Source of the DNA: Escherichia phage nithesis
Direction: 5' to 3' (one strand)
Length of the DNA stretch: 64,000 bases
Sequence record: PV252060.1
Made by a program: the position numbers and the translations under genes. Positions 26,249 to 27,883 of the stretch are shown piece by piece (the stretch's first letter is position 1; each line of letters starts with the position of its first letter). The notes under the pieces are model-generated. The model made no database searches. It saw only the letters and a list, made by a program, of their open reading frames with translations, and had not been told where the DNA came from.

Positions 26249-26691
26249 TTAATGAGTGAGTCATGCCAGACTTTAACTGGCTCCTTCTTCGCAATCCTTA
26301 CATACCCCTACATAATTATTGCGTTAAGCTTTTTTGTTTAAGTTTAAATGAAGGCGTTCTTGCTGACTCATAATAGAGTGGGCGTTTGACGAATGACTAG
26401 TTCGTTACTACCCGTTTGCCATAAGTACCTGGCGACTTTGGTTTGAGGTGGGAGTCCGAGTCCTGTACAGCCTTACCGTTCACACATTGGCAGCGTATCT
26501 AGAATAGCACTTCCGGCAACTGGATTTAACTGTTACACCCCAAATCTGGTAGGGGCGTCCAGAGGTCTCATCTGGTACTTACGCCGTCGTATGGTTACGC
26601 CTTACCCCCATAATTCTTATAATTCAGAGTAGCACTGCTCCATGTTTGGCCTTTGAACTCCGGGATGGATTAGTGCAATGCTACTTTGAAT

Positions 26692-26815
26692 TGGTTACCA
26701 GTGAAGGATTCGAACCTCCGGTTGGAGTCTATAGCTTACCGCAGCAGCCCTCCAATCTAGCGGTGTCACACTTAGTCCAAACTTGAACATGTCAAGCCAT
26801 CTCGTGCAACTGGTA
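26692..26815 (-). ncRNA. tRNA-like element, about 124 nt between matching acceptor halves
   Basis: T arm GGAGG-TTCGAAT-CCTTC plus ACTGGTA-A-CCA 3' end; exact 7-nt complement TACCAGT lies 124 nt away, 2 nt from the next element. Confidence 0.3.
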
Positions 26816-26817
26816 AT

Positions 26818-26883
26818 TGGTTCCGGCGTCTGGACTCGAACCAGAACACTCATGCCGTGCACGACACTAGTACCTACACCGGA
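26818..26883 (-). ncRNA. tRNA-like element (T arm and acceptor only)
   Basis: TCTGG-TTCGAGT-CCAGA T arm, acceptor TCCGGTG/CGCCGGA with A-CCA, but only about 66 nt and no foldable D/anticodon arms by hand. Confidence 0.3.
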
Positions 26884-27883
26884 ATTAATTGCCAGGGATT
26901 CCACCTGGCTCCATCTGTTTTTATAGTCACTCAGATATCGTCTGGACTTGTTGTGGTGGCCGGTACTGATCTCCGACATAAGGCGCTTATTCGGCGGCGT
27001 CGAGCTTGCTTATTCGCTTGAGCCATCCTCGTGAGTCAGCCACGTCCCACTGCGCATCAGCCTGCGCATTCACCACAACGGAAAGAGCACTTAACAGAAG
27101 ATAGGTCTGATTGCCTCGGATGATTTCTCAGTAGCCTAAATGCTCTTACCTGTTGTGTGCCCATTATTAATCACAGCGGGCCACTGCGCCGAATTTGCTT
27201 ACAAGGAGTCGGAAGACCTTGCTGACTTACAGGCTATTACGCCGCCATCAGAATAACATCATCGTTTGCATTTATGTTATTGGTTCGTTTCTAAAAAAAC
27301 CGCATAATCGCTACGAAAACTATCGGGGAGTGCACTGAGGGTTAGCTAGACCTCCACAAACTGGGATATCCCTATGTTTGGTTAGATGGGCTTACCTGTA
27401 TTAGCGCACTAACACAGTCTTAATCACCACTCTCGCACGATACAATGCACTCTCCGATAGTTCATAATAGGAGGGAGGAGACGAATCCCCCCTTTATACC
27501 CTATATTGCATGTAAGATCTAACAGTTCGATGTTGTAGACGGATAGGCTTATACTTACCGGCATTAAACTCCCGCCCCCTTAGTGGGCTGGGTTAATTAG
27601 TATGCTCAACATGAGCGGTTAGTTGATAAGGTATCTGAAGCCTTATCCAAAAGATACTAACCTTTGGGATATAGCCTAAGATTCAGAAATGGCCCCTATA
27701 GGAGAGGCCATTGATTAACCCTAATGTTGCTTTACATTTTCTGAGATAACCCATTCTTAAAATAGTCTGTCTGACGGATGGGGGGCCACCCCTAGCGTCA
27801 GTGCCATACGGCAAAGATTAAGTTAAGAAAGGTTATGATAGGAGTTCCTATCTCAAAGGATTCTAACAGAACCCTTCACGATA

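Follow-up and report, generated by a model that had tools for sequence, protein, structure and literature searches.

What does a phage genome, as a rule densely coding, keep in a stretch that holds no gene of plausible size? The question is raised by positions 26250-27883 of a 64,000-nt stretch of DNA from Escherichia phage nithesis (PV252060.1), the whole of which is referred to as the window below. An earlier note had offered four possibilities for these 1.6 kb: structured non-coding RNAs, degenerate tRNAs, a replication origin or a packaging site. Of these, the two RNA readings are borne out by covariation and by conservation across phages, while origin and packaging are not. What that note missed is the main content of the stretch, a module derived from transfer-messenger RNA (tmRNA, SsrA) with a conserved tag frame. 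In the accepted view tmRNA is a housekeeping RNA found in nearly all bacteria and of fixed design, a tRNA-like domain combined with a tag template. Very probably the stretch is an island of non-coding RNAs, with all its elements read on the minus strand, that contains a genuine tmRNA-derived structured RNA; the explanation developed below is, taken as a whole, considered probable. Judged by its sequence, the RNA appears to be an undescribed relative of tmRNA that is present, mostly without annotation, in hundreds of unrelated enterobacterial phages and prophages.

The module at 27159-27324, called the body here, seems to descend from tmRNA and to have kept its layout of tag, hairpin and pseudoknots, with helices that covary. 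Its parts are the following.

27159-27324, minus strand: tmRNA-derived body, recognised from a sub-threshold Rfam match, the family alignment, pair counts and tag statistics
27313-27324, minus strand: 5' motif of the body, GAUAGUUUUCGU
27234-27269, minus strand: tag frame GCA AAC GAU GAU GUU AUU CUG AUG GCG GCG UAA UAG, read as ANDDVILMAA and two stop codons
27222-27251, minus strand: hairpin with the stop codons in its loop
27202-27221, minus strand: stem-loop of pseudoknot PK2, whose loop pairs with 27189-27192
27159-27186, minus strand: pseudoknot PK3

The tag frame is preceded by AUAAAU, and the peptide ANDDVILMAA closely resembles the enterobacterial tag ANDENYALAA. What marks the mRNA-like region of a tmRNA, namely a GCA resume codon in its context, a short frame with a hydrophobic end in A/V-A, and stop codons, is all present. 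All 30 distinct tag sequences of the family have exactly 10 sense codons followed by UAA or UAG in this one frame; in the other two frames the length varies from 2 to 11. Over codons 3-10 the column entropy is 0.77 at the first codon position, 0.46 at the second and 1.10 at the third, so that variability follows the order third, first, second. Synonymous variants are found (GAA/GAG, CUG/UUG, GUU/GUA, all four GCN, UAA/UAG), and the peptides, among them ANEEMYLAVA and ANDDLMMVAA, conform to the pattern AN[DE][DEN]xx[LM]x[AV]A. The tag columns are free of indels, which do occur elsewhere in the family alignment. The frame thus evolves like translated sequence, and the evidence that ribosomes read it is strong but not conclusive, because the overlapping hairpin could impose part of the pattern.

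The proposed structure was evaluated by counting its 23 pairs on an alignment of 35 non-redundant family sequences, with the partners slid by 1-3 columns as controls. Pairing is possible in 90.4% of the cells, compared to 33-48% in the slid controls, and changes on both sides are found in 12 of the 23 pairs (87 cells), compared to 3-7 pairs (4-21 cells). None of 500 shuffles reached the observed values for pairing and covariation. The stem of PK2 occurs as CAAGG/CCUUG, UGAGG/CCUCA and CGGGG/CCCCG, and its loop CCGA, which pairs with a downstream UCGG, is replaced by CCAG/CUGG or GUCG/CGAC in other members. For PK3 the stem variants are CAG/CUG, CAC/GUG and CAU/AUG, and further GCCC/GGGC, AUCC/GGAU, GCCCUGA/UCAGGGC and UCCCCGU/ACGGGGA. 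A stop-codon hairpin (helix 5 of tmRNA) followed by pseudoknots is therefore present and has support from covariation, so that the comparison with related phages that the earlier note had proposed comes out in favour of a conserved structure. In viral contigs that carry genuine permuted tmRNAs, the acceptor strand is followed by a D-loop analogue (ACUAGUUUCGAC, CCAGGUUUCGAC), and the 5' motif GAUAGUUUUCGU is similar to it.

A number of observations weigh against placing the body among the tmRNAs. The Rfam tmRNA models match the window and four other family members, in each case below the gathering threshold: in a permissive scan tmRNA_permuted (RF04321) gives 29.4 bits at 27237-27324 on the minus strand, its best scores being this one and 34.7 bits in Sf16, against a gathering score of 47, and the alpha (RF01849) and beta (RF01850) tmRNA models, whose gathering scores are 50 and 84, reach about 20 bits. 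The curated score that defines a tmRNA in Rfam is thus not reached. With ARAGORN at its defaults, permuted tmRNAs are called in three viral contigs used as controls, but no tmRNA is called in the window, nor in any of the 13 family loci examined. A tRNA-like domain with a 7-bp acceptor stem, G3:U70, a T-arm and a 3' NCCA was not found in the body, in one piece or in two; there is neither a T-arm at the expected place nor a 3' CCA of the body's own. The flanking tRNA-like elements differ between phages, and their third pair is C-G, G-C or a mismatch and never G3:U70. In at least eight distinct Akira-like contigs a promoter TTGACA-N17-TAGATT ends about 7 nt before the 5' motif; the promoter-driven copies would therefore start at this motif and give an RNA without the 5' strand of an acceptor stem. 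The U.U mismatch seen at the third pair of the stalk that follows the body is not conserved. For a pseudoknot PK1 upstream of the tag, the candidate pairing (CUUUG/CAAAG versus UUAUG/CAUAA) falls in inconsistent alignment columns and was dropped, and RNAalifold proposes AGUUUU/AGAAACU instead. Transcription, processing sites and any aminoacylation of the island RNAs are things that we infer. Finally, a literature search of partial coverage for phage tmRNA-like RNA, for the exact tag peptides and for ncRNAs of N4 and Gamaleyavirus returned no description, and a prior report is possible. The body appears to be derived from tmRNA, yet it lacks a defining part of one.

Some candidates were considered and left aside. 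With the ARAGORN threshold at 75% a permuted tmRNA with the ANDDVILMAA tag is called, but so are about a dozen implausible ones, and the call is not used as evidence. The stalk was also considered as an alanine minihelix whose third pair (U.U or A.C) is not of the Watson-Crick type; this idea was given up, as the pair is A-U or U-A in several variants and shifted in Sf16. A trans-acting acceptor piece travelling with the body was looked for by comparing six contexts pairwise, and only the body and stalk fragments were common to all. The 66-nt mini tRNA-like RNA described below is confined to N4-like phages, and the examined N4 locus has this RNA and no match to the body. Genuine viral tmRNAs were also matched by an nhmmer profile made from the body, in a region that comprises the tag, the hairpin and part of PK2 (lowest E-value 3.5e-8); this match is not independent because the loci had been chosen by a shared 14-mer.

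A sensitive BLAST search with 27120-27345 matched 491 phage records at 70-96% identity. The body is carried by N4-like phages, Vi01-like Ackermannviridae, FelixO1-like phages and phage P1, and also by 45-48-kb siphoviruses of Salmonella, Klebsiella and E. coli (Akira and others), and in the phage records the matching region is almost always unannotated. It is found in 145 of 5426 complete E. coli genomes (about 3%), in prophages, where the PGAP pipeline annotates essentially nothing. Rfam 15 has no family for the unclassified RNAs of the island. A 15-mer scan of genome contigs gave only chance matches among the matches listed, none of them with a tag.

In the tRNA-bearing loci inspected the body lies on the same strand as the tRNAs. 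It is found upstream of the single tRNA of Akira, inside the tRNA array of Sf16, and in P1 downstream of Pban and a dicF-like region and upstream of tRNA-Asn/Thr. In two inspected E. coli prophage loci it occupies a non-coding gap of about 1 kb that reaches from a late antiterminator gene, which comes with its terminator, to a holin gene. In Salmonella phage Akira the locus at about 1490-2050 looks like a self-contained operon, in which a consensus-like promoter is followed by the body, stalk 1, a tRNA-like module and the sole tRNA (Met, CAU); the module has canonical D- and T-arms, a large insertion and a cloverleaf-like fold. The leader of about 1 kb in lambdoid and P22-like prophages, seen in two E. 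coli chromosomes and four viral contigs, contains the body, stalks, T-arm-bearing inserts and a hairpin with the loop ACGAAAC. In P1 (AF234173, locus 2102-2692) stalk-type and T-arm modules match DNA downstream of tRNA-Thr, inside the minus-strand open reading frames (ORFs) plp and upl; RNA modules on the opposite strand may overlap with these ORFs or have given rise to them as artefacts. The stalk-1 insert in one IMG/VR contig has, by eye, a hammerhead-like core (CUGACGAG, stem II, CGAAAC, stem III, GUC and a strand complementary to the 5' flank) that scores below every Rfam gathering threshold.

The body is one of several modules of the island. Each of these is also found in unrelated phages; in the loci inspected they lie in tRNA arrays, late-operon leaders or intergenic gaps, and on the strand of the neighbouring tRNAs or genes. 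Close relatives differ by swaps of whole blocks, and the modules are 75-98% identical between otherwise unrelated phages. Given these shared modules and swaps, the island is understood as a row of interchangeable RNA cassettes set between conserved helices, some tRNA-shaped and others of the stalk type. The stalks and tRNA-shaped elements are the following.

27320-27460, minus strand: stalk 0, in which 27320-27334 pairs with 27446-27460 in a 15-bp helix (CUAUCGGAGAGUGCA / UGCACUCCCCGAUAG) with one A.C mismatch around a variable insert of 105 nt
27074-27157, minus strand: stalk 1, CACAAC-A-GG-U-AAGAGCA / UGCUCUU-U-CC-GUUGUG, with an apical insert of 51 nt here
26950-27079, minus strand: stalk 2, tRNA-shaped with a variable core and acceptor-like strands GUUGUGGUG / CACCACAAC
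27052-27067, minus strand: D-arm-like hairpin of stalk 2, GCGC-AGGCUGAU-GCGC
26959-26977, minus strand: T-arm-like hairpin of stalk 2, whose loop AUCAGU could, by sequence, pair with the D-loop GCUGAU
26818-26883, minus strand: 66-nt mini tRNA-like RNA with a 7-8-bp acceptor, T-arm UCUGG-UUCGAGU-CCAGA and encoded ACCA
26692-26815, minus strand: 124-nt tRNA-like RNA with acceptor UACCAGU/ACUGGUA, T-arm GGAGG-UUCGAAU-CCUUC, encoded ACCA and about 85 nt of extra arms
26547-26609, minus strand: weak, degenerate tRNA-like remnant of low confidence, a CCAGA-UGAGACC-UCUGG hairpin followed by CCCCUACCA
26173-26248, minus strand: tRNA with an abnormal anticodon arm (ARAGORN; Rfam tRNA)
26093-26167, minus strand: tRNA-Ile with anticodon AAU (ARAGORN; Rfam tRNA)
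26088-26119, 26170-26201, 26689-26720 and 26815-26846, minus strand: direct repeats (family D1) of the 3' end with T-arm, acceptor strand and ACCA

Stalk 0 (inverted repeat I1) folds with z = -4.2 against shuffles over 27319-27460, and the 3' strand of its helix continues into the 5' motif of the body. In design this helix is like that of stalk 1. Compensatory changes, with the mismatch at the same position, are found in ShWW44, Bas96 and KP8. At 27383-27427 on the minus strand its insert holds a degenerate second copy of the PK3 linker and stalk strand (GUGAUUAAGACUG ... ACAGGUAAGCCCAUCUA; repeats D4 and D6), about 250 nt upstream of the intact one, which suggests an older, decayed tandem unit. 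In most family members the second pseudoknot of the body is succeeded by stalk 1, whose insert measures 31-280 nt and whose strands vary in a compensatory manner, as in GGUAAGGGCGCU/AGCGUCCUUUCC and GGAAAUGGCAUU/AGUGCCAUUUCC; in KP8 and Bas96 a tRNA-like element takes its place. The GUUGUG of stalk 2 can alternatively pair with the CACAAC at the base of stalk 1, and the flanks of stalk 2 occur with differing cores in many family members; its counterpart in Akira is the tRNA-like module described above.

The earlier note had seen tRNA-like motifs here, and the four 3' ends of family D1 confirm that observation. Read on the other strand, its repeated actgcgc/cggcg words correspond to GCGCAGUGG-type sequences, which lie in PK3 and in the D-arm-like hairpin. 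The 66-nt RNA has a central hairpin with a 4-nt loop, has no anticodon loop and folds with z = -2.2; it is 97% identical in N4, is labelled tRNA-Undet in phage Jura and corresponds to a region under a tRNA-OTHER feature in KP8, and here it is neither called by ARAGORN nor above the Rfam tRNA threshold. The 124-nt RNA is called in part by ARAGORN, as a Ser-like tRNA and only at the 85% threshold. Its counterpart in Klebsiella phage KP8, found immediately after the tmRNA-like body, has the acceptor UACUGGU/ACCAGUA with two compensatory pairs, and the inner hairpin covaries as well. Both RNAs have the acceptor stem, the T-arm with a UUCGA-type loop and the CCA of a tRNA, while a cloverleaf with a 7-nt anticodon loop, or a tRNA by the default thresholds of ARAGORN and Rfam, was not found within 26250-27883. 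The remnant at 26547-26609 folds no better than its shuffles, and ShWW44 has two T-arm-bearing elements at this place.

The tRNA cluster that the earlier note placed beside the stretch does exist and consists of the two minus-strand tRNAs at 26093-26167 and 26173-26248, with Rfam scores of 64.8 and 40.7 bits. At the Rfam gathering threshold these are the only matches in the 64-kb window, and 16 family loci give tRNAs and one int-alpA RNA only, so that the proposed ARAGORN and Rfam scans recover two tRNAs just outside the stretch and nothing inside it at curated thresholds. An unmodified A34, as in tRNA-Ile AAU, would be unusual in bacterial-type decoding. The tRNA at 26173-26248 has a good acceptor stem, D-arm and T-arm, and ARAGORN reports a 2-nt "anticodon" for it. 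In near-identical relatives the tRNA features under the match are labelled Cys, Thr, Ala or Pseudo, not necessarily all of them for this tRNA.

Further conserved blocks lie on both sides of these elements, and signals that may frame the island are found at its ends.

27456-27668, minus strand: structured block M-A, 75-79% identical to intergenic DNA of phiEco32-like phages and with a consensus fold
27647-27668, 27625-27647 (GAUAAGG/CCUUAUC) and 27604-27616, minus strand: hairpins of M-A
27571-27592, minus strand: hairpin of M-A, CCCAGCCC...GGGGGCGGG
27467-27504, minus strand: UUCG-capped hairpin of M-A nested in AUAGG/CCUAU
26884-26949, minus strand: conserved leader block AAGUCCAGACGAUAUCUGAGUGACUAUAAAAACAGAUGGAGCCAGGUGGAAUCCCUGGCAAUUAAU, which together with the 66-nt RNA is 97% identical to N4
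26442-26544, minus strand: structured RNA M2 of about 100 nt with the closing helix UUUGGGGUG/CACCUCAAA
27860-27887, minus strand: sigma-70-like promoter candidate by consensus match only (TTAATA, 16-nt spacer, TAGAAT, TG upstream)
25942-25971, minus strand: strong intrinsic terminator with a 9-bp stem, UUCG loop and U-run, just beyond the tRNAs, closing the island

The gataagg...ccttatc hairpin at 27625-27647, cited in the earlier note as an example of an inverted repeat, is real and is conserved in the phiEco32 intergenic region. A paired-hairpin motif, AAGGxUxxxxxAxxCUUU followed by GAUAGG/CCUAUC or GAUAAGG/CCUUAUC, occurs twice on the minus strand, at 27625-27668 and in degenerate form at 27837-27876, where it overlaps the promoter-like site; the same motif opens the homologous region of phiEco32. 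Parts of the leader block are also found in unrelated Klebsiella, Shigella and Salmonella phages (SopranoGao, DS8 and 9NA). The core of M2 is 98% identical in N4, where the closing helix is compensated (GUGGGAUG/CAUCCCAC), and in the Vequintavirinae phage KaOmega M2 is 82% identical, lies between tRNA-Glu and tRNA-Asp and is closed by UUUGAGGUG/CAUCUCAAA, so that this helix covaries across three phage groups.

The promoter candidate lies immediately past the stop codon of the upstream gene and is a possible start of the island transcript; promoter-like sites are no commoner in the region than in its shuffles, and read-through from the upstream genes is equally possible. As the elements are on the minus strand, with a promoter-like site before them and a terminator behind them, as iterons are missing and as the peak of the GC skew lies elsewhere, the region from about 27887 to 25942 is taken as one island of RNA genes, and a role as origin or packaging site is set aside. 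The island would extend the tRNA cluster and probably be transcribed as one polycistronic precursor that is cut into stable RNAs. In this mechanism, the most economical one, the stalks and tRNA-shaped helices would probably act as scaffolds for processing or stabilisation, releasing or protecting the cargo RNAs between them, and might be cut by RNase P, by 3'-processing nucleases or by double-strand-specific nucleases in the manner of tRNA punctuation. The tmRNA-like RNA most likely takes part in ribosome rescue during infection, where it would offer the phage-specific tag template ANDDVILMAA in place of the host's ANDENYALAA; a role as template in trans-translation is proposed because the tag behaves like a coding sequence. 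Without a canonical tRNA-like domain that accepts alanine, the body could only function as a tmRNA that has been rearranged or split and is completed by a tRNA-like module next to it, or else by way of the tmRNA-SmpB system of the host. That the RNA actually templates tagging is held tentatively, as a serious possibility that falls short of an even chance. The wider claim, that at least five unrelated enterobacterial phage groups and many prophages carry a rearranged tmRNA and re-program trans-translation with a phage tag instead of ANDENYALAA, is more doubtful, and rather unlikely as it stands. The same doubt applies to the arrangement that it implies, in which the tag template would be separate from, or newly ordered with, a non-canonical acceptor module.

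Other explanations start from the appearance of the stretch as a gap. Ranked by length at a cut-off of 100 amino acids, the ORF-free gap at 25894-28285 is the first in the window (2392 nt; the runner-up has 1048 nt), and at 60 amino acids the two top gaps, 26980-27883 and 26295-26694, both lie within the stretch, separated solely by the 94-aa ORF 26695-26979 on the minus strand. The claim of the earlier note that the stretch is free of plausible ORFs thus stands. The relative Bas96 has eight small hypothetical ORFs annotated here, on both strands, and several very small proteins of 30-90 amino acids could have been missed or inconsistently annotated by gene callers. A 46-aa ORF at 27427-27564 on the minus strand does match phrog_37481 (E = 6e-24), but stop codons truncate it in phiEco32 and its start is missing in ShWW44, and the hairpins beneath it are kept. 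No Pfam match was found for ten ORFs of 35-94 amino acids from the stretch, and for the other nine of these the only family match reported is a weak one, of ORF 27195-27335 on the plus strand to phrog_26260 (E = 0.0024). The 94-aa ORF, which lies across two tRNA-like elements, has neither a Pfam nor a PHROG match and is not present in N4, and the annotations of the stretch are inconsistent among near-identical genomes. No ORF within the largest gap has credible protein support. Protein coding by the stretch is unlikely because it is the largest ORF-free gap, has no Pfam match and a single PHROG match of weak context, and corresponds to a gap that is unannotated in N4 too; the small-protein explanation is accordingly judged highly improbable. 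A DNA-level function, as replication origin, packaging site or other cis-acting site, would read the inverted repeats as protein-binding or hairpin-promoter elements. These repeats are numerous, the stretch adjoins replication genes, and in N4-type phages the promoters of the virion RNA polymerase are DNA hairpins. However, no iterons or tandem arrays were found in the stretch, where the sole multi-copy direct repeat is the tRNA 3' end in four copies. The GC skew shows no switch or inflection within it, the cumulative maximum lying near 24.7 kb, where plus- and minus-strand genes converge, and the GC content (0.43-0.53) is not below that of the flanks. The covariation keeps RNA-type pairs, including G.U, on one strand, and the same modules occur in the tRNA arrays or late leaders of P1, lambdoid, FelixO1-like and Vi01-like phages, which have quite different replication and packaging systems. 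A site acting as DNA is for these reasons regarded as extremely improbable.

If the stretch does consist of RNA modules, they might be a graveyard of decaying tRNA and tmRNA pseudogenes without function, kept in a permissive spot. Such a view would fit that several elements have no usable anticodon arms, that one remnant folds no better than shuffles, that the insert of stalk 0 has a degenerate partial copy of the neighbouring module, and that whole blocks are replaced between close relatives. But compensatory changes that preserve helices are not expected under decay, nor are a 10-codon frame and stop kept in all 30 variants, 97-98% identity to N4 in two blocks, dedicated promoters in other phages, and modules shared by at least five unrelated phage groups. 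This explanation is already disfavoured and seems quite improbable. Another one accepts a functional RNA and denies it the role of tag template: it would be a regulator or decoy that blocks or redirects the trans-translation of the host, a possibility that is unlikely but deserves attention. In the mechanism that could be envisaged for it, and which is similarly unlikely, the 5' motif would pair with the tag region of the host tmRNA, or the body would titrate away a factor whose binding site is the mRNA-like and pseudoknot part of tmRNA. UAGUUUUCGU (27313-27322, minus strand) is a perfect 10-nt complement of ACGAAAACUA, codons 3-6 of the E. coli ssrA tag, and by eye most motif variants keep 9-11 pairs with this site when G.U is allowed; it is at exactly these codons that the phage tags depart from the host tag. 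The promoter-driven copies place the motif at the extreme 5' end, as in seed-bearing small RNAs, and the missing acceptor domain also agrees with such a role. On the other hand, about 4% of shuffles yield a complementary 10-mer somewhere between body and tmRNA, and attention was drawn to this site post hoc. The motif has a possible internal partner, AGAAACU, besides its likeness to an ordinary tmRNA D-loop analogue; the target sequence is probably common to all hosts and leaves no co-variation to compare. A pure antisense or decoy RNA, moreover, leaves the 10 codons, the stop and the codon-like variability unexplained.

Taken as a tmRNA derivative that serves in ribosome rescue, the RNA can be compared to known systems, above all to tmRNA and especially to the coding piece of two-piece tmRNAs. 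They share the resume context UAAAU-GCA-AAC-GA, a tag of 10 codons whose residues 3-4 are acidic and whose end is a hydrophobic A/V-A like that of ANDENYALAA, stops in a hairpin loop, H-type pseudoknots after the tag, the D-loop-like 5' motif and, below threshold, the Rfam models. Unlike tmRNA, the body is without the G3:U70 acceptor stem, the T-arm at the expected place and a 3' CCA of its own, the RNA would start at the D-loop-like motif in several phages, and a conserved stalk whose inserts can be exchanged comes after the body. The island also resembles the tRNA clusters of N4, FelixO1-like and Vi01-like phages and Vequintavirinae in its location and strand, in the ends with T-arm, acceptor and CCA, in the interleaving with true tRNAs and in the terminator at the end. 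It differs from them in that most elements cannot decode, the 7-nt anticodon loop being absent or disrupted, or the anticodon arm being replaced by large insertions. tRNA-shaped elements act as punctuation or scaffold in mitochondrial transcript processing, in the MALAT1 mascRNA and in engineered tRNA scaffolds. Here, too, tRNA-shaped helices flank interchangeable cargo in what would be one transcript; many stalks, however, are without a T-arm, and the long continuous helices are more like substrates of double-strand-specific nucleases. The tRNA cluster of T4 encodes the stable RNAs C and D (species 1 and 2), which are not tRNAs, are co-processed with the tRNAs and have no known function. They are similar to the modules of the island in being non-tRNA RNAs encoded together with phage tRNAs, and no T4-like phage is among the matches listed by the BLAST search with the body.

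The interest of the tmRNA derivative lies in a tag that evolves as if translated while the canonical tRNA-like domain is missing, and in its having stayed unannotated in model phages that include P1, lambdoid and P22-like prophages, and FelixO1-, Vi01- and N4-like phages. If it templates tagging, phages would reprogramme ribosome rescue, and tmRNA would work in a new topology; if not, it would belong to a new class of phage RNAs that target the rescue system. A rearranged tmRNA would be a new tmRNA architecture and a new way for phages to take over translation quality control, placed on a mobile RNA cassette, and the fate of tagged proteins would be altered, or rescue restored when the host tmRNA is disabled. 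More generally, the "empty" gaps beside phage tRNA genes appear to hold rows of interchangeable structured-RNA cassettes, which present annotation pipelines overlook or wrongly record as small ORFs.

As for the genome itself, two more stretches of about 1 kb in the window, 59255-60227 and 51387-52434, are without ORFs of at least 80-100 amino acids. A megablast search with 26250-27883 matched 319 phage records. The best matches are E. coli phages of Gamaleyavirus (G7C/Bp4/ECBP1-type, N4-like Schitoviridae), at 92-97% identity over 60-80% of the query and split in 3-6 pieces, and the source thus appears to be a Gamaleyavirus-like (N4-like) E. coli phage. The 3590-aa ORF at 14140-24912 on the plus strand is presumably the giant virion RNA polymerase of the N4-like group. 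In phage N4 the corresponding gap lies between gp47 and gp48 and seems, on reading its sequence, to contain ordinary tRNAs in addition to two blocks 97-98% identical to the window. The genes that flank the stretch are on the minus strand on both sides. Those above 27884 have counterparts in the close relative ShWW44 whose annotations read hypothetical protein, RuvC-like resolvase and ssDNA-binding protein, and because of the latter two the name "replication module", which the earlier note gave to this neighbourhood, is a reasonable one.

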